From an uncultured Syntrophaceae bacterium (GTDB lineage: Bacteria; Desulfobacterota; Syntrophia; Syntrophales; UBA2210): DNA of 38,588 nt. The DNA lies in contig CAZRUU010000001.1 of assembly GCA_964603235.1 (NCBI GenBank), positions 1 to 38,588 of the forward strand, given 5' to 3'. Each line of letters starts with the position of its first letter. Position 1 is the stretch's first letter. Made by a program: the position numbers and the translations under genes. The notes under the pieces are model-generated. The model had not been told where the DNA came from, made no database searches, and saw only the letters and a program-made list of their open reading frames with translations. Of the stretch, positions 88 to 30,138 are shown in pieces.

Positions 88-1188
88 CTAGGCCCGTTTC
101 TTCAAGACATGAACATTGCGGGAGACGGTCACATCCACCTTGTCCTTTTCCTTCAAAGGTACATGCTCCCTGGGATCCTGGATGTCCACGATTATTTCCT
201 TGTCATTCCCCAGGACCACGTGACATTTTGCAAGCGCCCCCGAATATATATACCGTCTCAGTGTGCCCTGGATCACGTTCTGTTTAACCGTTCCGTTGGC
301 TGGTGCGATCCTTATTGTTTCCGGTCTGATGACGAGCAACACTTCAGTCCCTGGGGCAAATTCAGTCTGCTCAATATCAATCTCAAGCTTCCCGTATTCA
401 GTTGATACGACAGCTGCATCAGTTTCCTTGATGATGCTGTCGATCTTTGCTGGGAGGAAATTGACGTAACCGACAAAACTCGCGATGAATTCATTGACGG
501 GATGATCGTATATCTCAATGGGAGAACCTACCTGCTGTATATACCCATCTGAGAGTACAACGATCTTGTCGGATATGGCCATTGCCTCATACTGGTCGTG
601 GGTGACAAAGACGGTTGTGATGGACAGTTCCGTCTGAAGCCTCCTGATTTCATCACGCATGAGAACCCGCAGGTTCGCGTCGAGGTTCGATATGGGTTCG
701 TCGAGGAGGAGCACCTTGGGTGAAAAGGCAAGTGCACGGGCAAAGGCGACGCGCTGCTGCTGACCACCGCTCATTTTATCGATCATCCTGTCGTTGTATC
801 CTTCCAGTTGCACCAGCGTCAGGAGTTCATCGACACGTTCCCGGATCTTTTTCTTGTCCCATTTTTTGATCTTCAGTCCGTAGGCAAGATTTTCACCTAC
901 CGTCAGATGAGGAAAGAGGGCATAGTTCTGGAAACAGATCCGTGTATCACGAAGATTGGGCGGCAGATTACTGATATCCCTCCCCTCAAGTATGATCTCG
1001 CCGGAATCCTGTTCAGTGAATCCTCCGATGACACGTAGAAGAGTGGTCTTTCCGCATCCGCTGGGCCCCACGAACGTTACCAGCTCTCCCTTATTTACCT
1101 CAATAGAAATGCCATTCAGGACCTTGTTCTTGCCGAAGGATTTGTGGATATCCTTTACGATCAACATTGGTTGCTCATTCGTACCCAT
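88..1188 (-). CDS. ABC transporter ATP-binding subunit with C-terminal TOBE-like domain (PotA/FbpC/PhnT type)
   Basis: 366-aa ORF. Walker A GPSGCGKTT, signature MSGGQQQRVAFARAL, Walker B VLLLDEP, H-loop VTHDQ. The ATG lies 1 nt after the permease stop. Confidence 0.9.
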   Translation of the reverse strand: MGTNEQPMLIVKDIHKSFGKNKVLNGISIEVNKGELVTFVGPSGCGKTTLLRVIGGFTEQDSGEIILEGRDISNLPPNLRDTRICFQNYALFPHLTVGENLAYGLKIKKWDKKKIRERVDELLTLVQLEGYNDRMIDKMSGGQQQRVAFARALAFSPKVLLLDEPISNLDANLRVLMRDEIRRLQTELSITTVFVTHDQYEAMAISDKIVVLSDGYIQQVGSPIEIYDHPVNEFIASFVGYVNFLPAKIDSIIKETDAAVVSTEYGKLEIDIEQTEFAPGTEVLLVIRPETIRIAPANGTVKQNVIQGTLRRYIYSGALAKCHVVLGNDKEIIVDIQDPREHVPLKEKDKVDVTVSRNVHVLKKRA

Positions 1189-1189
1189 A

Positions 1190-2881
1190 TTATGCAGCGC
1201 CTCTCTTTGGTTCTATATTGAGATTTGTAAATTTTGTTAACAGTTTAAGTGTAATCATGCACAGGATAACTATCATGATCATCTTCAAGGTAGTGGCCGA
1301 CGCAAGGCCTATTTTTCCGTATGCAGCTGCGTCGAATATGGTCACCGCCGCCAGTTCGTAGCCAGGGCTTACAAGGAATACTACCGCGCTGAGGGATACC
1401 ATTGTTGTCATGAAGGTATAGATAAAACCTGCGATAAAGGCAGGGAACATAATGGGAAGGACTATTCTCCTGAATGTTGTGATGAAGGTTGCCCCCATAT
1501 CCCATGATGCCTCCTCTATTTCGATATTGATCTGATGAAGCTTGGTGATTCCCGCTTCGACGCCGACGGCAAGAAAACGAAATACGCAGTTGAGGGCCAG
1601 TATCATGATTCCTCCCGTCAGTTTCATGGGAGGTGACGCGAAGGCTAGGAGATAGCCAACTCCGAGGACGGTGCCCGGCAAGGCAAATCCCGACAGGGCG
1701 ATCATCTCGATGAAATTTCTTCCGAAAAATTTTCCACGCACGATAATATAGGCGAGAAGAGTACCGATGATGCCGCCAATGAGCGCGGCGAGAAACGATA
1801 CTTTTACGCTGTTCCAGATTGCTATGTTGGAGCGGAAATCCATAATATGTCTCCAAACGAATTCATTTTTGACACCCAGAATGTTGACAAACGCGGCCAT
1901 TATGACCACTAAGAAGCAGATAAATATGGTGAATCCGAAGGTAAAGGTAATGGCAATGAAGGGTACTTTTACGAAGGGACTCATCTTTCGCGGTTCTGAG
2001 GCGATGGGCTTGCCTTCGATCGTAGTGAATTTCTTGCCCTTGAGCAGGTAATTATGGGCTATGAAGATCATGATGCATGGCATGATCAACATGACGGAAA
2101 GGACGCTACCCATACTGAAATCAGCTTCACCCGTTATCATTGTGTAGGTGTCGGGGGCCAGAAAGGGAACTCTGCCTCCAAGGACAGCGGCATTACCGAA
2201 CTCCGCGATGGTCATGACAAAAACCAGGAGGGCGGCCTTGAGCAGTCCGGGAGCGAGCAGAGGGAGTGTAATAGTCCTTATGATGTGTCCCTCCGTCGCG
2301 CCCATGTCGTAGGCGCTTTCCTCAAGGTTCGGATTCAGCGATTTGATATTATTTTCCAGTATCAGGAATGCCAGGGGTATGAAAGCGAGTGTCTGGGCTA
2401 TGACAACGCCGTCGAAGCCGTATATCTCCCAGTGAACACCGAAAGTGGTGGTGATCAACCCGACGCGTCCGAAGAGAATAATAAGGGAGAGCGCGAAGAG
2501 ATATGGCGGTGCAATCAACGGTATCATGGCGACGATCTTGAGAGGTTTACGCAGGGCCATGGGGCCGCGCGTCGTCATGTAGGCGAAACAGAAACCTACG
2601 GCCACGCATATAACGGTATTTATCACGCCTAGCCACAGTGTATTCTTCAGAGATTGGAAAAAATACGCATGGGTAAAAAAATTATTGTAGTGTGCGAGGG
2701 TAAAACCCCCAGGGCCTTGAAAGCTCTTTACCAGTACGGCGAATATGGGGTAGAGGAGAAAGACGGCGAGTAGCAGAAATAAAAGCAAAGCCAGGATGTT
2801 GATAAACTTCGCGTTGAAAAATTCTTTGATACTTTCCCATCCTGTCAGCTCAGCGTGGTATGGTGTTGCCGTTAAAGCCAT
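1190..2881 (-). CDS. Fused two-domain ABC transporter permease (Fe3+/2-aminoethylphosphonate-type, single polypeptide carrying both membrane domains)
   Basis: 563-aa highly hydrophobic ORF with two EAA-like loops (ESAYDMGATEGHIIRTITLPLLAPG and EEASWDMGATFITTFRRIVLPIMFPA). It sits between the binding-protein and ATPase genes. Confidence 0.85.
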   Translation of the reverse strand: MALTATPYHAELTGWESIKEFFNAKFINILALLLFLLLAVFLLYPIFAVLVKSFQGPGGFTLAHYNNFFTHAYFFQSLKNTLWLGVINTVICVAVGFCFAYMTTRGPMALRKPLKIVAMIPLIAPPYLFALSLIILFGRVGLITTTFGVHWEIYGFDGVVIAQTLAFIPLAFLILENNIKSLNPNLEESAYDMGATEGHIIRTITLPLLAPGLLKAALLVFVMTIAEFGNAAVLGGRVPFLAPDTYTMITGEADFSMGSVLSVMLIMPCIMIFIAHNYLLKGKKFTTIEGKPIASEPRKMSPFVKVPFIAITFTFGFTIFICFLVVIMAAFVNILGVKNEFVWRHIMDFRSNIAIWNSVKVSFLAALIGGIIGTLLAYIIVRGKFFGRNFIEMIALSGFALPGTVLGVGYLLAFASPPMKLTGGIMILALNCVFRFLAVGVEAGITKLHQINIEIEEASWDMGATFITTFRRIVLPIMFPAFIAGFIYTFMTTMVSLSAVVFLVSPGYELAAVTIFDAAAYGKIGLASATTLKMIMIVILCMITLKLLTKFTNLNIEPKRGAA

Positions 2882-2936
2882 CCTTCTCCCCTTTGTGTGA
2901 TAGTTGCCAGTAAATCTCAGATGTTAAAGACAACGG

Positions 2937-3938
2937 TTATTTGTAGGTGGTCCTGAATTTCGATTTCCAGATATCGTTATTCTTGGGCCTTTCTTTCGCG
3001 GCCTTTCCGAGGTCCAGATCGATGTACTTCGGCTGTATTTCTCCGTAGAGCTTGTTCGGCGCCGGACGGGGAGCCATATAGCCAATGTTAGCCATAACAG
3101 CGCTAAATTCTTGTTCTGCAAGCGCATCAATTACCTTCTTGCAGAGACTTAATTGTTTTCCCTCTGTAGTACTGAAGATAAACGCAAAGGTTCCGTCATA
3201 GCCGATACCCTCTTCTGGGACTCCCCAGACAATCGGATAACCCTGGTCGAGCCTGTTTTTGACGTTTTCATCTGAGGTGATACCCAGCGTGAATTCGCCA
3301 CGACCAACGAGGTCTGTCGGCGCATTGCCGCTTCTGGTGTAATGATGGATGTTTTTGTCAAGTTTCTGAAGGAAATCCCAACCTCCATCATCGCCATAGA
3401 GGGCGAGGAAGGTGAAGCGGATCATGTTTGCCGTTCCGGAGCTGAGGGGTGATGCCATGACGATCTCACCCTTCCACTTGGGATCCAGAAGCTCCTTCCA
3501 GCTGGTGGGAAGCTTGAGGCCTTTTTTAGCGAGGATATCCTTATTACCAACGAGCACAAAAGAGAAATTCCCGATGTTGTACCAGTATCCCTTGGGATCG
3601 GCGAAAACATTGCTGATTCCCTGCCATTTAGGAGACTTGTAAGACTGGGCCCATTTCTTCTCCGCTGCCATAAAGCACAGGGGAGAACCACAGCCAAGAA
3701 CCATATCAGCATTGAAATTGGGGGCTTCGGCCTTTACCTTGGCTTCAATTTCACCGAATGACTGAAAAGTCTGCTTAATGTCAATTCCTGTTTTTGCCTT
3801 GACGTAGTTTACGATAGCTATGTTGTTGTCGGGTGACGTACCCATGTAGGCGGTTATTTCATCACCAGCGTAAACACTGCCGCCTACTACCATGATTGCA
3901 AAAATGACGAGAACTGCCAAAGATATTTTTGTCTTCAT
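2937..3938 (-). CDS. Periplasmic substrate-binding protein of the ABC importer (FbpA/PhnS-like family)
   Basis: 333-aa ORF. Signal peptide MKTKISLAVLVIFAIMVVGGSVYA. Motif WKELLDPKWKGEIVMASPLSSGTA is typical of Fe3+/AEP-type binding proteins (from memory). RBS AAGGAGAAAC precedes the ATG. Confidence 0.8.
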   Translation of the reverse strand: MKTKISLAVLVIFAIMVVGGSVYAGDEITAYMGTSPDNNIAIVNYVKAKTGIDIKQTFQSFGEIEAKVKAEAPNFNADMVLGCGSPLCFMAAEKKWAQSYKSPKWQGISNVFADPKGYWYNIGNFSFVLVGNKDILAKKGLKLPTSWKELLDPKWKGEIVMASPLSSGTANMIRFTFLALYGDDGGWDFLQKLDKNIHHYTRSGNAPTDLVGRGEFTLGITSDENVKNRLDQGYPIVWGVPEEGIGYDGTFAFIFSTTEGKQLSLCKKVIDALAEQEFSAVMANIGYMAPRPAPNKLYGEIQPKYIDLDLGKAAKERPKNNDIWKSKFRTTYK

Positions 3939-15801: not shown

Positions 15802-17154
15802 ATGGACGAGCAACACAAATTAGAGGGAGATATAAACATCTCTCCACAACGGGATAAATGGCAGACAGAAAACATAGACAAAAAAACACGGAAGCTTCTG
15901 GACGAAGACGAACGCTATTTCCTCAGACAGTCGCTGTCAACCCCATGCCTTAATGCCCTGCAGGCCTGCGAGGGTATTTATATAGAGGATTTGCAGGGAC
16001 GTCGCTATATTGACTTTCACGGGAATAATCTCCACCAGGTTGGTTTTGCCAACCCGGAGGTTATTTCGGCCATCAAAGATCAGCTCGATAAGCTGCCCTT
16101 TTGCCCCAGACGTTACACCAACCAAGTTGCCGTGGACCTGGCCAAAAAGCTGTCACAGATTGCTCCCGGCAATCTTAACAAGGTACTACTGTGCCCGGGA
16201 GGCGCAGAGGGCATGGGCATAGCCCTAAAGCTTGCACGTATTGCCACTGGACGTCACAAGACAATCTCCATGTGGGAGTCTTTTCACGGGGCGTCACTGG
16301 ACACAATATCCATTGGAGGTGAAGCGGTATTTCGTCAGAATATAGGACCACTGATGTCGGGCACCGAACATGCACCACCTCCCGACGCATACCGGCGTTT
16401 CTGCGATATCGGGAACCCGGAAGAGTGGGAAATCATGTGCGCAAAGTACGTCGAATATATGCTGGAGAAGGAGGGAGATATTGCCGCTGTTATCTCTGAA
16501 CCAATTCGCAGTACTCCCTATGTTCCCAATGCGGAATACTGGAAAATCATCCGTCGCGCGTGTGACAAACATGGCGCCTTGCTCATCTTCGACGAAATTC
16601 CCCATGCCCTGGGTCGGACGGGCAAGATGTTTACCTGTGAAAACTTTGATGTTGTGCCGGATATACTGGTTATCGGCAAAGGTCTGGGAGGTGGCATATT
16701 TCCGATAGCCGCCGTTATCGCGCGCGAGGATCTGGATGTAGCCAGTGACAGGGCTTTGGGTCATTACACCCACGAAAAAAATCCTGTGGCCTGCGCGGCC
16801 GCACTTGCCGCCATTAACTATGTTGAAACGCACAAACTGGCGGAACACGCTGCCGAACTCGGTCGATACGCTCTGGAACGAGCGGTCAAAATGATGGAAA
16901 AGCACCCGCTGATAGGAGACGTGCGAGGATTGGGCCTGTTCCTGGGAATAGAACTGGTCAAAGATCGCGCTACCCACGAACGGGCACTTGATGAAGCCGA
17001 GGAGGTAATGTACAAAGCACTTACAAAGGGCCTGAGTTTCAAGCTGACGATGGGAAATATCATCACGCTCACACCGGCGCTGATCATTACAAGAGAAGAA
17101 ATGGACAGAGCCCTTGATATTATTGATGAATGTTTGGATGAGATGGAGGGGTAA
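15802..17154 (+). CDS. Class-III PLP-dependent aminotransferase/lyase, dialkylglycine-decarboxylase/PbfA-like subgroup (paralog 2)
   Basis: 450 aa. RBS AAGGAGG. DEIPHALGRTGKMF, PLP-lysine context DILVIGKGLGGG, and FCPRRYTN, WESFHG, GHYTHEKNP. Convergent with ald. Confidence 0.85.
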   Translation: MDEQHKLEGDINISPQRDKWQTENIDKKTRKLLDEDERYFLRQSLSTPCLNALQACEGIYIEDLQGRRYIDFHGNNLHQVGFANPEVISAIKDQLDKLPFCPRRYTNQVAVDLAKKLSQIAPGNLNKVLLCPGGAEGMGIALKLARIATGRHKTISMWESFHGASLDTISIGGEAVFRQNIGPLMSGTEHAPPPDAYRRFCDIGNPEEWEIMCAKYVEYMLEKEGDIAAVISEPIRSTPYVPNAEYWKIIRRACDKHGALLIFDEIPHALGRTGKMFTCENFDVVPDILVIGKGLGGGIFPIAAVIAREDLDVASDRALGHYTHEKNPVACAAALAAINYVETHKLAEHAAELGRYALERAVKMMEKHPLIGDVRGLGLFLGIELVKDRATHERALDEAEEVMYKALTKGLSFKLTMGNIITLTPALIITREEMDRALDIIDECLDEMEG

Positions 17155-18573: not shown

Positions 18574-19695
18574 TTACCAGAACATGGATTCTTCTATTGC
18601 CTTTAAGAGTCTTTTTATATCTTCAGGGTAGATGTCGCCAATGTTTCCGATCCTGAACGTATCGAGCTTTGTCACTTTGCCCGGGTAGATAACGAAACCC
18701 TTCTCTTTCAGTTTGTCATAGAATTTCTTAAAGTTGTACTTTTCGCTTTCGGGGCTGTAGAAGGATGTAATAATCGGTGACTGGAACTCGTCGGGCAGAA
18801 GAGTTTTGAATCCAAGTTTTCTCATTCCTTCGACCAGGATCTTCTGGCTGGTGCTGTATCGCTCGTGCCTCTTTTCAATTCCTCCCTCTTCTTCCAGTTC
18901 CAGCATCGCCTGGCAAAATGCCCTTACAACGTGGGTGGGAGAGGTGTACCGCCACTTGCCTCTGTCCGCTTCCATCATCTGCCACTGGTCATAGAGATCA
19001 AGGGAGAGCGAGCGGGCGTATCCCTTAATCTTTGTCATTTCCTCTTTCCTGGCGATGATAAAACCAAAGCCCGGAACTCCCTGGATACATTTGTTTGAGC
19101 TTCCAACACAGTAGTCGATGTTCAGGTCGGAAATATCCATAGGGACTCCACCGAAACTACTTATGGTGTCGGTAAAGTATACCTTCCCGTATTTTTTTGC
19201 TATCTCGCCTATCTTATTTATGGGATTGATCATACCCGTAGTCGTTTCACAGTGTACAACGGCAACGTGAGTTATATCCCTGTCTTCCTTCAGGGTTGAT
19301 TCAAGCTTTTCCAAGTCGGGCTTTGCCAGTTCCCCGCTGTTATGAACGATGGTGTTTATCTTGAGGGTTTTAGAGATCAGGGCGATCCTGTCTCCGTAGG
19401 CGCCGTTTGCGAGAACGAGAAGCTTGCCCTCGGGAGGGATTATGGAACCGATAATCGATTCAACGGAAAAGGTGCCGCTACCCTGCATAAGAGTGATTGT
19501 GTATTCTTCAGTTTTCTTCGTGGCCAGTGCGAGGAGCTTTGCCCGCAAATCTTCCACCAAGGTCTTGTAATCATCGTCCCAGGTGCACCAGTCTCTCAGC
19601 ATAACGGCCTTTACCGTTTTACTCGTCGACAATGGTCCCGGTGTCAAAAGTAAATAGGGATTATCTGGTATGTATTTTGTATCCATTGTATCCAT
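18574..19695 (-). CDS. phnW: 2-aminoethylphosphonate:pyruvate aminotransferase (class-V PLP enzyme)
   Basis: [30 protein letters not shown] and PLP-lysine context [16 protein letters not shown] fit PhnW. I prefer the ATG at 19695 (RBS AAGGAGG 6 nt upstream) to the GTG at 19791 in the ORF track. Confidence 0.8.
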
Positions 19696-19844
19696 TGTAC
19701 GCCTCCTTGATTTGATCTTTATGCTGACACCGGTGTAAACGACCCGACCTTCACAACGGGCAGCTATTAAAACGTATGTATTACAAGCCACGTAATATCG
19801 TATGAACCCTGAAGCATATTGTGGCTGCTCTTTTATGGTATGAA

Positions 19845-21156: not shown

Positions 21157-21270
21157 TTATATTTTTGTACAAATAAAAACCGGATATGTAAAGCCGAAAA
21201 TCCCATTCAACCCATCTGCCGACAGAACCAGTTGATTATTATTACTCCGGTAATAATATATGTCAAGGTT

Positions 21271-21429: not shown

Positions 21430-22086
21430 TTAGTTATTTGAGTCCAAGAGGCGAAGCAATTCGTTGGAGGCATCCAGCACTGTCTCATATATCCCATGCG
21501 CTCCGGAAAAATCACCGTCCATTGTCAGCCTGTTGGGGATTACTATGCATCTGATCCCCGCCGCGATTGCCGCTCTGAGGCCGCGTTCCGAATCCTCTAC
21601 GATTATGCAACGCTCTTTTTTGAAACCGTTTTTTACGATTGCGGTGAGAAAGGGATCGGGGTCCGGTTTGGAGTGTTCGTAATCCTCACGGGTCAGCACA
21701 AAATCAAAATACGGCAGGAGTCCAGTGGCGGCATGAATAATGTCAAAGTGTTCCTTCCGGGAGCTCGTTACCACACCCATAGACACCCTGCCCTGAAGTA
21801 AGCGGAGCGTATGCCCGACACCGTCTATCGGTCGAACACCGCTCCGCAGCAGGTTGCTGTAGAGTCGATTACGTTTCTGACGGAGACGATAAATCTTCTC
21901 CGCTGTTACACCCCTTTCGGCGGCAAGATCGAAGCAACTACGACCCTGCTTCAGGGAAATCATCTTGAACAGCTTCTCGGTCAGTTCGATCCCCGCCCCG
22001 GAGAGGGCCTCTTTCGTTGACTCATAGTATAGCTTTTCCGTGTCGACAAGGACACCGTCATTGTCCCACAAGATCGCTTCCAGCAT
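21430..22086 (-). CDS. HAD-superfamily subfamily IA phosphatase (not a PhnX-type phosphonatase)
   Basis: 218 aa. Motif I DNDGVLVDTE, motif II VVTSS, motif III KPDPDPF, motif IV EDSERG. The nucleophile motif is the generic DxDG, not the DxAGT of phosphonoacetaldehyde hydrolase. Confidence 0.8.
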   Translation of the reverse strand: MLEAILWDNDGVLVDTEKLYYESTKEALSGAGIELTEKLFKMISLKQGRSCFDLAAERGVTAEKIYRLRQKRNRLYSNLLRSGVRPIDGVGHTLRLLQGRVSMGVVTSSRKEHFDIIHAATGLLPYFDFVLTREDYEHSKPDPDPFLTAIVKNGFKKERCIIVEDSERGLRAAIAAGIRCIVIPNRLTMDGDFSGAHGIYETVLDASNELLRLLDSNN

Positions 22087-22104: not shown

Positions 22105-23496
22105 CTAATCCCTGCCCCACTTCTTCAGATACGGGCCTAACAGTTCCTCCTCAGTGGGAACATGATAGTTCTCGATCGGCTGAGCGAGATTAGTATAATT
22201 CAGGAATTGCTTCCAGTTGACGTTCTGGCTGGTGATGTTGCCGGCCCATGTGCCGCACCCGAGGGTATCGGTAAATGCATTACCGCTGAACCAGGCGCCG
22301 CTGTTTGCCGCGCCGTGAGGCATATTGCAACAGACTCTTCCCACGTTTGCCTTGATGGCGAGTTCCATCATCCTGTCCTGACGAGTGGAGTGGATTGCAA
22401 TTGAATGTCCTTCGCCACAGAATTTGTGCATCTTTTTCGCTCGTTCAACCATCTCGCTGAAATCCGACCATTTCCATACGGTGAGCACGAGAGATATTTT
22501 TTCTCCGGAGAATCTGTCTTCAGGACCGATCTTTTCTCCCATGACCATGAGGCAGCGTGTGCCTTCGGGTATATCTATGCCAGCCATTTTTGCAGGATAT
22601 TCAACAGGCCTTGCCACACAGTCTCGGTTCAAAACTGTTCCCTCCGGCCACATCCATTTCCGAAGTCTCTCACGTTCTTCCGTGGTGCACAAGTAAGCGC
22701 CCTCTGCTTTCAGGCAGCCCATCATCTCGTCGAAGACACTTTCTTCAATGGCTACAGCGTTTTCCGAGGAACATGACGCAGAGTTATTGGCACATTTAGA
22801 TTTCATAATCTTGTTGGCGGCAGCTTTAAAATCAGCTGTAGAATCCACCATGGATATGACATTACCCGCACCGACCGTCTGTGCTGGTTTTCCGGCTTTA
22901 TAAACTACCTTGACCAGAGCCTCTCCACCGGTCGCAACAGCATAATCACAACTTGCCATGAGTTGCTGCGTCTTCTCATTAGTGGGCTGCTTGACGCACT
23001 GCATCAGGTCTTCAGGAGCACCAATTTTCTTCAGGGCCTTTCTGCCAAGTTCTACAGTCATGTATGAGCTTTTAGGCGTTCTCGGATGGGGAGACACGAT
23101 CATTGCGTTTCTTGTTTTTAATATACTAAGACCAAGTGCAGTAATAGTTGACTCGGGGTTTGTACAGGGCACCACATTAGCAATAACACCGATCGGCTTG
23201 GCCAGAATCTTGAGATTCTTTTCCGGTATATCTTCAACAACACCGCACGTCTTAACACCCTTTTGATCCCAGAGAGTGCCGAGACATTTATCCTTGATCT
23301 TGCCTAACTTGTCCTCGTAGCGGCCGATGCCGGATTCATCAACGGAAAGGTGTGCAAGAACCTTTCTGTTCTCCTCTTTCGACCACTCCCAGGCTGCTGC
23401 CTGGCACATCTCGTCGACTTTTTCCTGCGGCCAGAATTCGACGATTTCAAAGGCCTTCCGCGCCCTCTTGTACATTTCTTGAATGTTGTCTTCCAT
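22105..23496 (-). CDS. CoA-acylating aldehyde dehydrogenase (AdhE N-domain/EutE/PduP/SauS family)
   Basis: 463 aa. Catalytic Cys context KCANNSASCSSENAVAI. The C-terminal TLGCGTWAGNITSQNVNWKQFLNYT parallels AdhE LGCGSWGGNSISENVGPKHLIN. RBS GAGGAGG. Confidence 0.85.
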   Translation of the reverse strand: MEDNIQEMYKRARKAFEIVEFWPQEKVDEMCQAAAWEWSKEENRKVLAHLSVDESGIGRYEDKLGKIKDKCLGTLWDQKGVKTCGVVEDIPEKNLKILAKPIGVIANVVPCTNPESTITALGLSILKTRNAMIVSPHPRTPKSSYMTVELGRKALKKIGAPEDLMQCVKQPTNEKTQQLMASCDYAVATGGEALVKVVYKAGKPAQTVGAGNVISMVDSTADFKAAANKIMKSKCANNSASCSSENAVAIEESVFDEMMGCLKAEGAYLCTTEERERLRKWMWPEGTVLNRDCVARPVEYPAKMAGIDIPEGTRCLMVMGEKIGPEDRFSGEKISLVLTVWKWSDFSEMVERAKKMHKFCGEGHSIAIHSTRQDRMMELAIKANVGRVCCNMPHGAANSGAWFSGNAFTDTLGCGTWAGNITSQNVNWKQFLNYTNLAQPIENYHVPTEEELLGPYLKKWGRD

Positions 23497-23510
23497 GGTA
23501 TTTCTTACCT

Positions 23511-23562
23511 CCTCAAAAAAAGATTAAAGATACGGCCGACGGCTCACGCCTTCAGCCGTATC
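23511..23562 (-). terminator. Terminator/attenuator-like hairpin plus U-tract between the citrate-synthase-fold genes and the aldehyde dehydrogenase gene
   Basis: The minus strand reads GATACGGC tgaaggcgtgagccgtcg GCCGTATC (8-bp outer stem), followed by TTTAATCTTTTTTT and then the RBS of the aldehyde dehydrogenase gene. Confidence 0.4.
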
Positions 23563-23634
23563 GAGTACGTGACATTGCTACAATGCTGTATGGAATCATC
23601 CCCGTATGGAGGAATAACCCATTTTTGTGTTCAA

Positions 23635-24657
23635 TTACTTTTTCCCCTGCTTCTTTAGAGAATCACGGGGGTCAACAACATCTTCAATGATGCGCCAGCC
23701 CGTTCCGTACATCTTCTGCTTTTCTTCGAAACCTTTTTTCCATTCTTCGGGTGTCTTATACTCAACAGCAGAAGCAACTTTCTTCCTTTCCTCGAGGGTG
23801 GGTATCGACCGATCTTCCGGTCCATCATAGTCCTCTTTCGGGGTAAGGTCTTCACCGAATCTCCGTTGGGGTTCCCTCTCTACTTCCTCACACCAGTGAG
23901 CACCAGCCCCGAACGACCTGGTAATCGCCACAATGACCCATGTGGCGTCAGAGGAAAATCCCAGGTCCATCATGATAGCCCCAGTGGCTCCAAGCATATC
24001 GAGGTCAACGGGTTTGTCGCTAAGCTTCTGGGCTGCCGCCACTACTTCCTTCATGAAGGCAATGTATTTGCCGGAAACTCCCAGTTTTTCTGCCCGGGCA
24101 ACAGCCCTCTTGGCGGCCGGATCCTTCAGCATCAAATCGGAGACACCGAGGTGAACCGCGTCAAGATGTTCCTTTGCAAGCAATTCAGCAGCTTCTGTGG
24201 TTGTTTTTCCCTCGTTCTCCACCAGGGCGAGATACGTATCGAGCATCTTCCCGAAGGCGTCAAAAGCGCCATATGCGTGGCCAAAGGCGAGTATGGAAGC
24301 CCCGCATGCCTGGGTGAGGAGAGTGGTACTGCTTCCCGCGATCCGTGCAATTGCCGCGGGTGAAGACAGACCGTCATCAAGAGAAAGAACCATGAGGTAG
24401 TTCAGCATCTGAGTTTCTTCTATAAGGGGAATCCGTGCCTGGAAGTCAACGAAGATAATATCGGGAAGCCCGTATCCCGATTCAACCAGTTCGGTGGTGT
24501 CATAGCCCCTTGTCACAATACGGTGAACGTTTTTGTAGGCAACCTCGGAAACCCACTGGAAAGGATCCCGCTTCTTGTCCTGAGGAACAGTGCCCCGCTC
24601 CCTCTTTGAATAATCAAAATTTAACCTTGGATCATCTAAGTTACCTATAACACCCAT
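23635..24657 (-). CDS. Citrate-synthase-fold protein, citryl-CoA-lyase-like, subunit A (divergent active site)
   Basis: About 340 aa. VTRGYDTTELVESGYGLPDIIFVDFQARIP, LSLDDGLSSPAAIARIAGSS...AFGHAYGA and VDLDMLGATGAIMMDLGF follow the citryl-CoA lyase/citrate synthase small-form layout. I prefer the ATG at 24657 (RBS AAGGAGGG) to the GTG at 24666. The start overlaps the upstream paralog by 13 nt. Confidence 0.7.
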   Translation of the reverse strand: MGVIGNLDDPRLNFDYSKRERGTVPQDKKRDPFQWVSEVAYKNVHRIVTRGYDTTELVESGYGLPDIIFVDFQARIPLIEETQMLNYLMVLSLDDGLSSPAAIARIAGSSTTLLTQACGASILAFGHAYGAFDAFGKMLDTYLALVENEGKTTTEAAELLAKEHLDAVHLGVSDLMLKDPAAKRAVARAEKLGVSGKYIAFMKEVVAAAQKLSDKPVDLDMLGATGAIMMDLGFSSDATWVIVAITRSFGAGAHWCEEVEREPQRRFGEDLTPKEDYDGPEDRSIPTLEERKKVASAVEYKTPEEWKKGFEEKQKMYGTGWRIIEDVVDPRDSLKKQGKK

Positions 24658-25541
24658 TTTTTCCACCCTCCTTCCTCTTTCTGTTTCTTAGCGTATTCCT
24701 GTCTCTCTGCCTGGCTTGGGACTTCTCTGTCCTCGGGGCCCACGTATTTTATCATGGACAAATCGAGCATCTGTACCATAGGTTCCCTTTTCGACGCGGC
24801 CCAGGCGCGGCCTTTTTTCATCTGATAGAGGGCATGAGCTGCACAGCTGTATCCCCTGGTGACGCATCCGATACACCAGGCGGCATTGGGTGCGAACCCT
24901 ATCTCGGCAAGGGCGGTATTCCCCGCTCCGATCATATTGACAGCTACATAGGATTTACCCTCTCTTTTCCTCCGCGCATTGAAGTGCTTCTCTATCGACC
25001 TTTGAAGTTCCAGGTACACACCGTTTATACCCAGCTGTTCGTGCTTGATATGCGTCGGCTCGGCCCGGGGGTCCCCATCGAGATGCTGTGGCTGTCCCAT
25101 GCCCATAACGGCGAAACCGGCATCCATGTGCTCATCAACGAGAATCTTGCCCATTTCCTCCAGGGATATGCCCTCCACACGGGCACGTTCGATGTACTTA
25201 TGCATCATGTATCCGTGGGCAGCTCCCGGTCCATGGGCACTGCCAAAGGTCGAGACGGCGGCCGCGGCTGCGGCCGTAATACTGGGTCTTCCACTGATTA
25301 CCCCGAAGGCTGATGCCGCAGAGGGCGACATGGAATGTTCCAGGAATTCTCCCATTTCATATTCGAGCATTTTTTCCTCTTCCTCGGTGGGAAGCCTCTG
25401 CTGAAACAGGACAAACATAGCGTCGCAAAAGGTATATCCGGCCTCTGCCAGATCGCTTACGTTATAGCCACGTAAGACGGTCTTTTCTTCTGTCTTGTAG
25501 GAAATTGATGTCTTCCTGCGGAAGAATGGTTCTCTATTCAT
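24645..25541 (-). CDS. Citrate-synthase-fold protein, citryl-CoA-lyase-like, subunit B (divergent active site)
   Basis: 298 aa. TSISYKTEEKTVLRGYNVSDLAEAGYTFCDAMFVLFQQRLP, LEHSMSPSAASAFGVISGRPSITAAAAAAVSTFGSAHGPGA, VMGMGQPQHLDGDPRA and AVNMIGAGNTALAEIGF are collinear with citryl-CoA lyase motifs. RBS GGAGGAG. Confidence 0.7.
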   Translation of the reverse strand: MNREPFFRRKTSISYKTEEKTVLRGYNVSDLAEAGYTFCDAMFVLFQQRLPTEEEEKMLEYEMGEFLEHSMSPSAASAFGVISGRPSITAAAAAAVSTFGSAHGPGAAHGYMMHKYIERARVEGISLEEMGKILVDEHMDAGFAVMGMGQPQHLDGDPRAEPTHIKHEQLGINGVYLELQRSIEKHFNARRKREGKSYVAVNMIGAGNTALAEIGFAPNAAWCIGCVTRGYSCAAHALYQMKKGRAWAASKREPMVQMLDLSMIKYVGPEDREVPSQAERQEYAKKQKEEGGWKKWVL

Positions 25542-26725: not shown

Positions 26726-27820
26726 TCACATAATGACGGCGACTCTTATCGCTTCGCCCGATTCCGCAATTCTCAACCCTTCGTTGATATCGTCCAGACT
26801 TACCCTGTGCGTGACAATTTCACTGAAGGGAAAATCCTTATGTCGCGCCTCGAGGAACTCGAGTCCCGCTTTTAAATGTTTTGCATCATAATTATGAATG
26901 CCTCTGAGAGTAAGTCTCCTGAAAACGAGGTCTCCGGCATCATAGGAAAAATCGGCACCATTGAAAACACACCCTACTTCAACATACCGTCCTCCGATCC
27001 GAAGACATTTGAGGCCGAGACCGATGAGACCCGGTACACCCGCCACTTCCATGGCGCAATCGACTCCATGATCGTCTGTAAGACTTTTAATCGCATCGAC
27101 GACTTCATCTTCTCTCATATTCCGTACATTTATCGTATCAGTAGCACCGAACCGTTTTATAAAATCCAACCGGTGCTCCAATATATCGGTAACAATAATT
27201 TTTCTGCATCCGTAATGCGATGCCAGCGCGGCGGCATAAAATCCAAGCGCTCCAGCTCCCTGGATTAGTACGTTCTCAAAGGGTTTGACTTCGCCCGCCT
27301 CCCATCCAGCCACCACGGTTGCAAGGGCGCAGTTTGCCGGCGCCACTTCTTCGTCCGTGAGGTTTTCCGGAATCTTGAAGACGCAGGTGCCGGGTGTAAT
27401 ATAACAGTATTCGGCAAAACCGCCTTTGAAATGTGGAGAATCCGCACAACTGTCGTGACCGTACTTTTTCAGGTTTCGGCATTTCATGGGCAGGCCTTTA
27501 TCACGGCAATAATAACATTTTCCGCAGTTGTCCATAATCGTCCACGTGATCCGGTCACCGATCTGTAGCGGCTTGTCCGCGGTGTCATGCGTCACCCCCT
27601 TGCCGAATTCTACAATCGTTCCGACTATTTCATGGCCGAGAATAATAGGAACAGGCGCGGGCCTGTGGCCCAGCCATGAATGAACGTCGGAGCCGCAGAT
27701 GGTGCAGCAGGTTATCTTAACAAGGATACATCCCTTTTCTACCTCAGGTAAGGGATATTCTATGAATTCAAGATCCTTTTTCTGGGCCGTCATCACAGCG
27801 GCTCTTGCCATCTTGGTCAT
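26726..27820 (-). CDS. Zn-dependent medium-chain alcohol dehydrogenase
   Basis: 364 aa. Catalytic Zn ligands in CTICGSDVHSW...GHEIVG. Structural Zn CGKCYYCRDKGLPMKC. Rossmann LIQGAGALGFYAAALA. Confidence 0.85.
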   Translation of the reverse strand: MTKMARAAVMTAQKKDLEFIEYPLPEVEKGCILVKITCCTICGSDVHSWLGHRPAPVPIILGHEIVGTIVEFGKGVTHDTADKPLQIGDRITWTIMDNCGKCYYCRDKGLPMKCRNLKKYGHDSCADSPHFKGGFAEYCYITPGTCVFKIPENLTDEEVAPANCALATVVAGWEAGEVKPFENVLIQGAGALGFYAAALASHYGCRKIIVTDILEHRLDFIKRFGATDTINVRNMREDEVVDAIKSLTDDHGVDCAMEVAGVPGLIGLGLKCLRIGGRYVEVGCVFNGADFSYDAGDLVFRRLTLRGIHNYDAKHLKAGLEFLEARHKDFPFSEIVTHRVSLDDINEGLRIAESGEAIRVAVIM

Positions 27821-29928: not shown

Positions 29929-30038
29929 AGCTTCAGTCTCCACAATCTCGCGATGGCCCAGCCCTGAGCCATCGCTCCTTGTTGAAATGGTAGTTTTTCT
30001 AACGCTCTCTCGGCATCTTCACCCACAATATCTTACCC

Positions 30039-30076
30039 GGCCAACCTTTCCCGACAATATCCGGGAAGGGTTGGCC
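30039..30076 (-). promoter_or_regulatory. Strong intercistronic stem-loop between the TRAP receptor and small-permease genes
   Basis: GGCCAACCTTTCCCG acaatatc CGGGAAGGGTTGGCC pairs 14 of 15 positions. No U-tract follows, so it resembles an mRNA-stability or differential-expression hairpin downstream of a binding-protein gene. Confidence 0.55.
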
Positions 30077-30138
30077 CAAGCAAGATGTTTGTGGCGATCA
30101 GACCCGCCATGCGACGCATTCGCCGCTTTTATAAGCGC

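Follow-up and report, generated by a model that had tools for sequence, protein, structure and literature searches.

2-Aminoethylphosphonate (AEP) is the most abundant natural phosphonate, and its use by strict anaerobes is poorly understood. In the PhnW-PhnY-PhnA pathway, phosphonoacetaldehyde produced by the AEP transaminase is oxidized by PhnY (TIGR03250), an NAD-dependent, non-acylating aldehyde dehydrogenase, which delivers free phosphonoacetate to PhnA. A different branch of the aldehyde dehydrogenases is CoA-acylating, and includes the N-terminal domain of AdhE, EutE and PduP, which act on neutral substrates (acetaldehyde, propionaldehyde) and have in common their fold, a catalytic Cys and His, and an LGCGxWGGN motif. 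The same acylating branch contains SauS (NF047625, sauRSTU), which acts on a C2 aldehyde bearing an anionic group and whose gene is linked to sulfoacetate-CoA ligase genes, and SucD of Clostridium kluyveri, a succinyl-CoA reductase or acylating succinate-semialdehyde dehydrogenase with a C4 carboxylate substrate. At the level of expression, intercistronic stem-loops are known to set ratios within operons, as leaky terminators or as 3'-end stabilizers (malE-malF REP, puf operon). For SucD (structures 8cei, 8cej and 8cek), roles have been assigned to Cys242, His364, Thr365, Lys66, Lys70 and Ser243, with the His364/Thr365 pair handling the CoA thiol proton, and Lys70 and Ser243 binding the distal carboxylate (PMC10249356).

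The window examined here, a 38,588-nucleotide stretch of DNA from an uncultured Syntrophaceae bacterium, carries on its minus strand a gene (22105..23496, start ATG at 23496) whose 463-residue product is, by sequence, fold and phylogeny, a CoA-acylating aldehyde dehydrogenase, and which we propose to be an acylating phosphonoacetaldehyde dehydrogenase. When the protein was compared with NCBIfam profiles, SauS came first, at 464 bits (cut-off 600), with AdhE- and EutE-type models next, and matches among PDB sequences were to acylating enzymes only, AdhE among them, with SucD (8cei) found at E = 1e-78. The AF2 model (pLDDT 84) gave the same picture, since acylating enzymes filled ranks 1-33 of the Foldseek search of the PDB (E 1e-38 to 1e-27), and hydrolytic (non-acylating) aldehyde dehydrogenases entered the list at rank 34 with E of ~1e-20. 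SucD was also the best match of solved structure (TM 0.84-0.87), although the two proteins are only 33% identical. The catalytic cysteine lies in the context ANNSASC242SSENA (Cys242 codon at 22771..22773, minus strand), and residues 411-420, TLGCGTWAGN, align with the equivalent motifs of AdhE, SucD and SauS. The PhnY model, in contrast, scored 25.4 bits against a cut-off of 635.65. These results bear out the original prediction, which had read an acylating layout, distinct from that of PhnY, from the cysteine context and the C-terminal motif, and had pointed to SauS as a precedent for accepting a C2 aldehyde with an anionic group; SauS-like enzymes are indeed the nearest named family.

The prediction had also described the enzyme as AdhE/SauS-type, and here the acylating class stands but identity with SauS does not. 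In a tree built with AdhE, EutE and SauS sequences, the dehydrogenase was one of 52 sequences, drawn from several phyla, that formed a single clade (SH-aLRT 100), whose sister is an orphan clade without a link to phosphonate genes. SauS sequences and those of the phosphonate clusters fell into separate groups, each with full support. AdhE/EutE-type enzymes formed the outgroup, and the dehydrogenase groups with SucD and SauS, the enzymes of anionic substrates. On the SauS model, clade members scored between 464 and 514 bits, with the window protein at the lower end and all below the cut-off of 600, compared with 800 bits for a control from a sauRSTU-type locus of Caballeronia and 676 bits for one from Ruegeria, both linked to sauRSTU and drawn from plasmid records. 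No true SauS above the cut-off was present in a 400-genome sample of the window's phylum. The dehydrogenase thus belongs to a distinct clade, which occurs only within phosphonate-catabolic gene clusters of anaerobes.

Alignment with SucD placed the functional residues of the dehydrogenase at identical numbers. Cys242, with Ser243 adjoining, occupies the SucD cysteine column and is invariant in the 52 clade members and in 30 database homologues; His364 and Ser365, in the motif GEGHS, align with SucD His364 and Thr365, and Lys66, Lys70 and Ser243 likewise align with residues of assigned role. SauS has Cys242, His364, Ser365, Lys70, Ser243 and His394 in common with the clade. At position 70, Lys is found in the clade, SauS and SucD, whereas AdhE and EutE-like sequences have Ala and E. 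coli EutE has Gln; since the orphan sister clade has Lys70 as well, the retention of this residue may be a matter of simple inheritance. Other residues set the clade apart. Within it, 156 positions are invariant, and at 31 of these the same residue is rare or absent (≤15%) in the other groups compared, among them N107, A236, N237, R352 and W402. The pair Ala236-Asn237 replaces the Phe/Tyr-Asp seen in every other group compared (Phe-Asp in SauS, Tyr-Asp before the catalytic cysteine in SucD), the pocket residue Thr395 of SucD is Gly or Ala in the clade, and Ala418 in place of Gly in the C-terminal motif is specific to the clade. Residues 236, 237 and 394 probably line the substrate pocket, judging from the SucD alignment and from general knowledge of aldehyde dehydrogenases. 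Together, Ala236, Asn237, Asn107 and His394 offer a signature for telling the clade from SauS in metagenomes, and targets for mutagenesis.

The neighbourhood of the gene points to phosphonates. PhnW, the 2-aminoethylphosphonate--pyruvate transaminase, is encoded at 18574..19791 on the minus strand (TIGR02326, 576 bits, cut-off 401), and PbfA, the (R)-1-hydroxy-2-aminoethylphosphonate ammonia-lyase, at 15802..17154 on the plus strand (NF049939, 702 bits, cut-off 525); the product of PhnW is phosphonoacetaldehyde, as is that of PbfA. A Zn-dependent alcohol dehydrogenase of the phosphonate-catabolism type is encoded at 26726..27820 (minus strand), with a score of 308 bits on TIGR03366 (HpnZ_proposed), just under the cut-off of 328. 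Directly upstream of the dehydrogenase gene lie two overlapping minus-strand genes with the Pfam domain Citrate_synt, CSa (24645-25541) and CSb (23635-24666; together 23635..25541), which resemble citrate synthases and citryl-CoA lyases and scored under the cut-offs of the NCBIfam citryl-CoA lyase models. Downstream, a HAD-family hydrolase gene (21430..22086, minus strand; Pfam HAD_2, motif DNDG, 102 bits on the beta-phosphoglucomutase family model, below cut-off) begins 18 nt past the dehydrogenase gene.

The same associations were found in related loci. Citrate-synthase-like genes stood directly upstream of the dehydrogenase gene in 35 of the 37 loci with enough sequence, a HAD gene of either of two subfamilies stood downstream in 24 of 35, and an AEP aminotransferase gene stood directly upstream in at least 22. 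Three of these aminotransferases were tested on TIGR03301 and scored 420-430 bits, above the cut-off of 361 (AepZ-type). Across 58 loci, the recurrent neighbours were citrate-synthase-like, AEP aminotransferase, HAD, PbfA and Phn transporter genes, and one locus (L038) carried PhnS2 and PhnU2 transporter genes above their cut-offs. We also searched five genomes for known enzymes of phosphonate breakdown, comprising the genome of the window (70% complete) and four more, of which three are complete chromosomes; PhnX, PhnA, PhnY and PhnJ were not found above cut-off in any of them.

Taken with the chemistry of the branch, this gene linkage makes the conversion of phosphonoacetaldehyde and CoA to phosphonoacetyl-CoA, with reduction of NAD(P)+ to NAD(P)H, the most likely role of the dehydrogenase; the reaction would thus use the substrate of PhnY and stand at the same place, after the AEP transaminase, but yield a CoA thioester instead of the free acid. 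The aldehyde would be supplied by PhnW, by PbfA and probably by the Zn-dependent alcohol dehydrogenase of the cluster. Catalysis is expected to proceed through a thiohemiacetal on Cys242, hydride transfer, and thiolysis of the acyl-cysteine by CoA, aided by His364 and Ser365, with the anionic group held by Lys70, Ser243 and His394. The replacement of Phe236 by Ala and of Asp237 by Asn would give a wider pocket with one negative charge fewer, which would suit a dianionic phosphonate. The two citrate-synthase-like proteins and/or the HAD hydrolase might then take over the thioester and cleave its C-P bond, which would yield acetyl-CoA and phosphate. We infer substrate, product and onward fate alike from this setting, and put the full sequence, in which the dehydrogenase makes phosphonoacetyl-CoA and the citrate-synthase-like pair and/or the HAD enzyme cleaves the C-P bond of this thioester, at slightly short of an even prospect. 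We found no description of catabolic phosphonoacetyl-CoA in the literature. If the proposal is right, phosphonoacetyl-CoA formation would open a CoA-dependent route of C-P cleavage that has so far not been described, oxygen-independent, energy-saving and widespread in sediment anaerobes, which would add a further means of phosphonate breakdown and would keep the carbon as acetyl-CoA, of value to fermenters and sulfate reducers.

The presence of a HAD gene downstream of the dehydrogenase in most loci raised a different explanation, namely that an ordinary acetylating acetaldehyde dehydrogenase works here behind a HAD protein that serves as a phosphonatase and splits phosphonoacetaldehyde into acetaldehyde and phosphate, the acetaldehyde then being turned into acetyl-CoA. 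PhnX, the phosphonatase, is itself a HAD enzyme, and acetaldehyde enzymes belong to the superfamily of the dehydrogenase. The commoner of the two HAD subfamilies, HADb, has the motif D-F-G-Q-T and so lacks the Asp+2, as does PhnX, and four loci encode a PhnX-like protein that reaches 170 of the required 219 bits on TIGR03351. HADb, however, is without an invariant cap-domain Lys as a candidate for Schiff-base formation, the HAD protein adjacent to the dehydrogenase in the window has a normal D-N-D-G phosphatase motif, and true PhnX was not found in the five genomes searched. The position of the dehydrogenase in the tree, with SucD and SauS rather than with AdhE and EutE, and its retention of Lys70 and Ser243, where AdhE and EutE-like sequences have Ala70 and E. 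coli EutE has Gln70, also argue against a neutral substrate, and the route would leave the linked citrate-synthase-like pair without a role. We therefore regard the acetaldehyde route as unlikely.

Phosphonoacetyl-CoA formation was also weighed against the reverse reaction, in which the enzyme would act as an acyl-CoA reductase, turning phosphonoacetyl-CoA into phosphonoacetaldehyde for AEP biosynthesis with the AepZ-type transaminase. In most loci the upstream transaminase hits TIGR03301, which we take to cover catabolic and biosynthetic AEP aminotransferases alike; the neighbours, in contrast, are those of catabolism and uptake (PbfA lyase, alanine dehydrogenase, TRAP and PhnS2T2U2 transporters, PhnD). 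We know of no reaction that forms phosphonoacetyl-CoA de novo, which counts against biosynthesis. PEP mutase exceeded its cut-off in only one of the five genomes, where it was unlinked to the cluster, and although the related SucD does act reductively in vivo (PMC10249356), a biosynthetic role here seems very improbable.

That the enzyme is a true SauS, and that the cluster degrades taurine or sulfoacetate and supplies sulfite to its sulfate- and sulfite-reducing hosts, is similarly far-fetched, since the protein falls short of the SauS cut-off and has its place elsewhere than in the SauS clade, the SauS-conserved Phe-Asp at 236-237 is Ala-Asn in its clade, no sulfonate-specific gene (sauT, sauCD, xsc, tauE or others) was among the recurrent neighbours of the 58 loci, and models specific for phosphonate genes recognize the linked transaminases, lyase and transporters above cut-off, and this despite SauS being the top-scoring named family, His394 being common to both groups, many of the hosts being Desulfobacterales, and JGI labelling many clade members "sulfoacetaldehyde dehydrogenase", a label that would have to be corrected for many database entries if the phosphonoacetaldehyde assignment holds.

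We also examined how the dehydrogenase gene is joined to the genes upstream. The stop codon of CSb ends at 23635, and the spacer that follows (23497..23634, minus strand) contains, after two weaker hairpins (about 23622-23590 and 23586-23572), a terminator-like stem-loop at 23529..23562. Its arms, GATACGGC...GCCGTATC (23562-23529), form a perfect 8-bp stem that can be extended to an outer stem of 11 bp, with an inner 3-bp stem and a GUGA loop. Directly 3' of it is a U-rich tail, TTTAATCTTTTTTT (23515..23528), followed by GAGGAGG at 23508..23514, which we read as the Shine-Dalgarno sequence of the dehydrogenase gene; most of the 58 related loci have a GGAGG-type site at this position. The prediction of a 138-nt gap holding an 8-bp-stem hairpin and the tail, immediately before the ribosome-binding site, is therefore correct. 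The hairpin folds with -25.6 kcal/mol and makes up 86% of the ensemble, compared with a mean of -10.65 for shuffled sequences (z = -6.44), none of the 200 shuffles being as stable, and the spacer as a whole gave a z of -4.3 in one analysis and -4.0 in another. Other junctions in the cluster are strongly structured too, for example DctP>DctQ, with a z of -6.3.

The tail (UUUAAUCUUUUUUU) consists of three U, AAUC, and seven U, and the site was missed by a scan with the consensus terminator, but listed by a wider one. The 1.53-Mb assembly was scanned on both strands for single hairpins (dG ≤ -14) with TTT directly on their 3' side and nine or more T among 14 nt, and only 36 such sites were detected, of which the hairpin studied here is the third in stability. 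Comparable sites in the genome mostly fall 20-100 nt past the end of an open reading frame, like real terminators, and this hairpin starts 73 nt past the CSb stop codon.

Several other identities for the element were considered and rejected. It is not a copy of a REP- or MITE-like repeat, since blastn-short against the whole assembly returned no second copy and the sequence is unlike three elements in the window. No Rfam family reached its gathering score across the window, and matches in the spacer were at chance level (E about 4-5), which leaves no known riboswitch or leader. Attenuation through a leader peptide was also set aside, because the 15-codon reading frame whose end lies within the 5' arm lacks a proper ribosome-binding site and shrinks to 4 codons in the related locus L002. 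An internal promoter for the dehydrogenase was rejected in the same way: neither a sigma-70-like site (23497-23700, minus strand) nor, nearby, a sigma-54-like site was found in or near the spacer. With no promoter-like site from the hairpin to the ATG, the dehydrogenase gene must be transcribed through the hairpin.

Conservation of the hairpin was uneven. Between the window and L002, 32 of its 34 nt are identical (94%), whereas the remainder of the spacer agrees at 78 of 104 (75%; Fisher p = 0.015) and the third codon positions of the dehydrogenase gene at 63%; the two weaker upstream hairpins are not kept in L002. In L004, whose dehydrogenase is 90% identical, the hairpin is deleted, and it is absent from L001 and L003, where a transaminase gene stands between CSb and the dehydrogenase gene. 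From this pattern, we conclude that the hairpin is specific to this lineage and is not a fixed part of the system. The idea that the spacer is a scar of a deleted transaminase gene was dropped, since its alignment to the 3' end of the gene in L001 and L003 was unconvincing. TTTAAT with a T-rich run after it is common to the window, L002 and L004, and an AT-rich leader ahead of the Shine-Dalgarno sequence is frequent in relatives without the hairpin. In another lineage (L043-L046, L051 and L057), the same spacer carries unrelated GC-rich hairpins with U-rich tails, and in L013, L018, L020 and L047, CSb and the dehydrogenase gene are adjacent, with short, unstructured spacers.

Like the intercistronic stem-loops described in other operons, the hairpin is stable, lies between co-directional genes and has a U-rich tail with no promoter after it, but in contrast to REP-type elements it is single-copy and conserved only in the nearest lineage. 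The original prediction of an attenuator is consistent with these features, and the hairpin, with its interrupted U-tract, plausibly works as a leaky intrinsic terminator, a stabilizer of 3' ends, or both; the genes up to CSb would then be expressed above those for the dehydrogenase and the HAD protein, the latter two being reached by read-through. Alternatively, the hairpin may be an incidental or recent palindrome that has no part in expression ratios, and the U-rich run nothing other than the usual AT-rich leader or a translation enhancer. Its deletion in L004 and absence from L001 and L003, the short spacers of the four loci above, the general occurrence of AT-rich leaders ahead of the gene, and the break in the U-tract after three U all fit this explanation, whereas the excess conservation relative to L002, the high rank in stability among terminator-like sites, the analogous hairpins of the second lineage and the strong structure at several other cluster junctions argue for a function; on this evidence, we consider an element without a role a possibility of some weight, though the less probable one. 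The combined proposal, in which the clade enzyme forms phosphonoacetyl-CoA and the lineage-specific hairpin is a leaky terminator and/or stabilizer, stands in our judgment in even balance. In either case, the hairpin matters much less than the enzyme, and would at most fine-tune expression in one lineage.

The 463-residue product of the dehydrogenase gene (window 22105-23496, minus strand, ATG at 23496) matched the Pfam Aldedh model over only the N-terminal two thirds of that model. Among NCBIfam models, SauS scored highest (464 bits, cut-off 600), followed by AdhE and acetylating acetaldehyde dehydrogenase, and the PhnY model gave 25 bits. The nearest solved relatives were SucD of Clostridium kluyveri (8cei, E 1e-78) and several AdhE structures, and when the PDB was searched with an AlphaFold model of the dehydrogenase (pLDDT 84, pTM 0.81), ranks 1-33 were all CoA-acylating enzymes, with hydrolytic aldehyde dehydrogenases appearing later at much weaker scores. 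Residue numbers coincide with those of SucD in the alignment, and Cys242, His364 and Ser365 align with SucD's catalytic Cys, His and Thr; in SucD, Cys242 forms the acyl-enzyme, His364 and Thr365 act in proton transfer to CoA, and Lys70 and Ser243 bind the distal carboxylate (PMC10249356). Lys66, Lys70 and Ser243 of SucD were also kept in the dehydrogenase, and position 70 is Lys in SauS, SucD and the related dehydrogenases of phosphonate clusters, but Ala in AdhE and EutE-like enzymes and Gln in E. coli EutE. The catalytic-residue alignment, the structural matches and the low PhnY score bear out the original prediction of a CoA-acylating enzyme that is not of the PhnY type, and the predicted LGCG(T/S)W(A/G)GN motif was found as TLGCGTWAGN.

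For comparison with SauS, we used two plasmid-borne enzymes as controls, one from Caballeronia, in a locus with the gene order of sauRSTU (IclR regulator, aldehyde dehydrogenase, AMP-binding ligase, MFS), and one from Ruegeria, in a locus with an aldehyde dehydrogenase and a ligase gene. The controls scored 800 and 676 bits, respectively, on the SauS model, and the window protein and three other members of its group scored 464-514. In a maximum-likelihood tree of 83 sequences, the 52 enzymes of related loci formed one clade (SH-aLRT 100, stem length 0.46), true SauS fell into a different clade with enzymes from Azospirillum and Haloterrigena, and SucD, then AdhE and EutE, lay farther out than both. 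The enzyme is thus not a SauS: SauS is its top-scoring named model, but the score is below cut-off and the two clades are separate. The sister of the phosphonate-cluster clade (support 98) was an orphan clade holding a second, 44% identical copy from the window's own genome (contig C110:2437-3816; L059:1483-2883). This copy adjoins fabD, and in relatives the orphan-clade genes lie beside Dsr/Hmc-like membrane redox complex genes or fabD, not phosphonate genes. The SauS-like enzymes of an Azospirillum plasmid (L088, NZ_CP032324.1) and a Haloterrigena plasmid (L089), annotated just as 'aldehyde dehydrogenase family protein', adjoin genes for SucCD-like ADP-forming CoA ligase or CoA transferase in clusters that also carry TTT transporter genes, and these are probably sulfoacetate-type clusters.

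Within the phosphonate-cluster clade 156 positions were invariant, and at 31 of these the clade's residue occurred in ≤15% of the sequences of the comparison groups, or in none. The most telling residues were Ala236-Asn237, at positions -6 and -5 from the catalytic Cys, where all other groups have Phe or Tyr (Gly in a single Ponticoccus sequence) and then Asp; Asn107, Glu115, Arg352, Trp402 and Ala418 also belong to this set, and His394 is common to the clade and SauS. In aldehyde dehydrogenases, the residue six positions before the catalytic Cys lines the substrate channel, and with the aromatic ring and acidic side chain gone from 236-237, the enzyme would be suited to a substituent of greater bulk and double charge. 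The separate clade and its residue signature are new here, as is the doubt they cast on existing annotation: 'sulfoacetaldehyde dehydrogenase' database labels are probably wrong for many clade members.

In the window, genes on the same (minus) strand are ordered PhnD-like, DctPQM, Zn-ADH, EamA, the overlapping citrate-synthase-like genes CSa (24645-25541) and CSb (23635-24666), dehydrogenase, HAD, a GlpT/PgtP-like MFS transporter, PhnW and alanine dehydrogenase, with PbfA on the plus strand. PhnW (576 bits, cut-off 401) and PbfA (702 bits, cut-off 525) yield phosphonoacetaldehyde, as possibly does the phosphonate-associated type Zn-ADH (308 bits, cut-off 328). Citrate-synthase-like genes were directly upstream of the dehydrogenase in 35 of the 37 loci with enough sequence, and a HAD gene was downstream in 24/35. 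At least 22 of the 58 loci had a class-V aminotransferase gene immediately before the dehydrogenase; the three tested gave 420-430 bits on TIGR03301 (2-aminoethylphosphonate (AEP) aminotransferase, cut-off 361). Genes for PbfA, PhnD, LysR regulators, PhnX-like and PhnA-like proteins recurred among the 58 loci, L038 carried PhnS2 and PhnU2 AEP transporter genes above their cut-offs, and no sulfonate-specific genes were seen among the recurrent neighbours. PhnX, PhnA, PhnY and PhnJ stayed below cut-off or were missing both from the window's genome (70% complete) and from four others, three of them complete chromosomes; PEP mutase exceeded its cut-off in a single one of these five genomes, where it was unlinked.

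The closest relatives, L001 (620-1798 and 4209-5342) and L003 (1168-2304 and 6023-7144), encode AEP aminotransferases of both kinds in one cluster, the TIGR03301 type before the dehydrogenase and PhnW of the TIGR02326 type after it, of which only the TIGR02326 type occurs in the window. PhnS2/T2/U2-like ABC transporter genes at the window edge (88-3938, minus strand), all below cut-off (152-385 bits), make a third candidate phosphonate uptake system in the window along with the TRAP system and the orphan PhnD-like protein. Some cassettes have MttB-type (trimethylamine-methyltransferase-like) genes near a LysR gene (L005:3913-5349, L011:8306-9742, L014:14350-15786), with 366 bits on TIGR02369 (cut-off 525).

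The simplest and most likely reading of these sequence data is that the dehydrogenase turns its neighbours' phosphonoacetaldehyde into phosphonoacetyl-CoA, which the two citrate-synthase-like proteins, the HAD hydrolase or both would then process. Full-text literature searches turned up no description of phosphonoacetyl-CoA in catabolism or of an acylating phosphonoacetaldehyde dehydrogenase. The main rival is that a HAD protein is a phosphonatase and the dehydrogenase merely turns the resulting acetaldehyde into acetyl-CoA. The commoner HAD subfamily, HADb, which follows the dehydrogenase in 28 loci (range L005-L058; e.g., L007:3096-3983), speaks for this, since its motif I, DFGQT, lacks the Asp+2 residue, as in PhnX. 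Its cap region, however, lacks an invariant Lys, the HAD adjacent to the window's dehydrogenase carries an ordinary DNDG motif, the dehydrogenase itself clusters with enzymes of anionic substrates and keeps Lys70 and Ser243, and the ever-present citrate-synthase-like pair would be left without a function. The HADb motif and the cap, in which many Arg but no Lys are invariant, are unusual for a plain phosphatase, and HADb may join in C-P cleavage. Sulfoacetaldehyde is an unlikely substrate despite the ranking of the SauS model, given the gene context and the enzyme's position outside SauS, and a reductive, biosynthetic role is unlikely beside uptake and catabolic genes.

A second HAD gene of the window's genome, of the HADb subfamily, lies on contig C35 (3918-6800, 7007-9893) beside a PhnA-like alkaline-phosphatase-superfamily gene (202 bits on TIGR02335, cut-off 408), a divergent LysR regulator, and PhoU-like and Pit phosphate transporter genes, so the module seems to be split over two contigs.

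CSb ends at 23635, leaving a 138-nt spacer before the dehydrogenase. In it a hairpin (23562-23529, minus strand) reads GATACGGCTGAAGGCGTGAGCCGTCGGCCGTATC, followed at once by TTTAATCTTTTTTT, and the Shine-Dalgarno sequence GAGGAGG was read directly at 23514-23508 (minus strand); the gap, hairpin and U-tract before the ribosome-binding site, as first noted, were correct in every detail. Folded alone, the hairpin forms an 11-bp outer stem, an inner 3-bp stem and a GUGA loop (-25.6 kcal/mol; 86% of the ensemble; z-score -6.44, with 0/200 shuffles equally stable), and the entire spacer has a fold z of -4.3. When both strands of the 1.53-Mb assembly were scanned for terminator-like sites (single hairpin with dG ≤ -14, then TTT and ≥9 T in 14 nt), 36 were found, this hairpin being the third most stable; most of the strong sites were 20-100 nt past the end of a same-strand ORF, the position of real terminators. 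The hairpin is not a chance feature. A repeat was rejected, as the assembly holds no second copy, and neither hairpin nor spacer matched an Rfam family.

We compared the spacer among the 58 related loci, taken from species-representative genomes. In four close relatives the enzyme shares 90-91% identity with that of the window. L002 matches the window in gene order and retains the hairpin, which differs there at 2 of 34 nt, an alignment deletion of ∼60 nt removes most of it in L004, and L001 and L003, where an extra transaminase gene separates CSb from the dehydrogenase, have no such hairpin. The stem looks constrained between the window and L002, because hairpin identity is 94%, against 75% for the remaining spacer (Fisher p 0.015) and 63% for third codon positions in the dehydrogenase gene. 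In a second lineage with CSb adjoining the dehydrogenase (L043-L046, L051, L057), the same spacer is occupied by unrelated hairpins that are GC-rich and have U-rich tails, and in other lineages with this adjacency (L013, L018, L020, L047) spacers are short and plain; an AT-rich leader 5' of the Shine-Dalgarno sequence is general among related loci. The stretch from hairpin to ATG held no sigma-70-like or sigma-54-like promoter. Transcription of the dehydrogenase gene must therefore pass through the hairpin, which we read as a putative leaky terminator and/or 3'-end stabiliser. This test of the hairpin, also new here, points to a real, locally constrained and lineage-specific structure that is neither essential to the system nor one of its conserved parts.

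Other junctions of the cluster were also structured. The DctP-DctQ spacer (29944-30138, minus strand) folds at -87.8 kcal/mol over 195 nt (z -6.3), making it extremely structured; a stem-loop at such a junction classically serves to raise the expression of a binding protein above that of its membrane subunits. The 273-nt HAD-MFS spacer has a fold z of -4.4, and the strong structure of these junctions is consistent with a regular use of stem-loops as punctuation in the cluster. The latter spacer also holds the region's best sigma-70-like match (21238-21266, minus strand; TTGACA-17-AATAAT, 11/12), so a separate transcription unit may comprise the genes for MFS, PhnW and alanine dehydrogenase.
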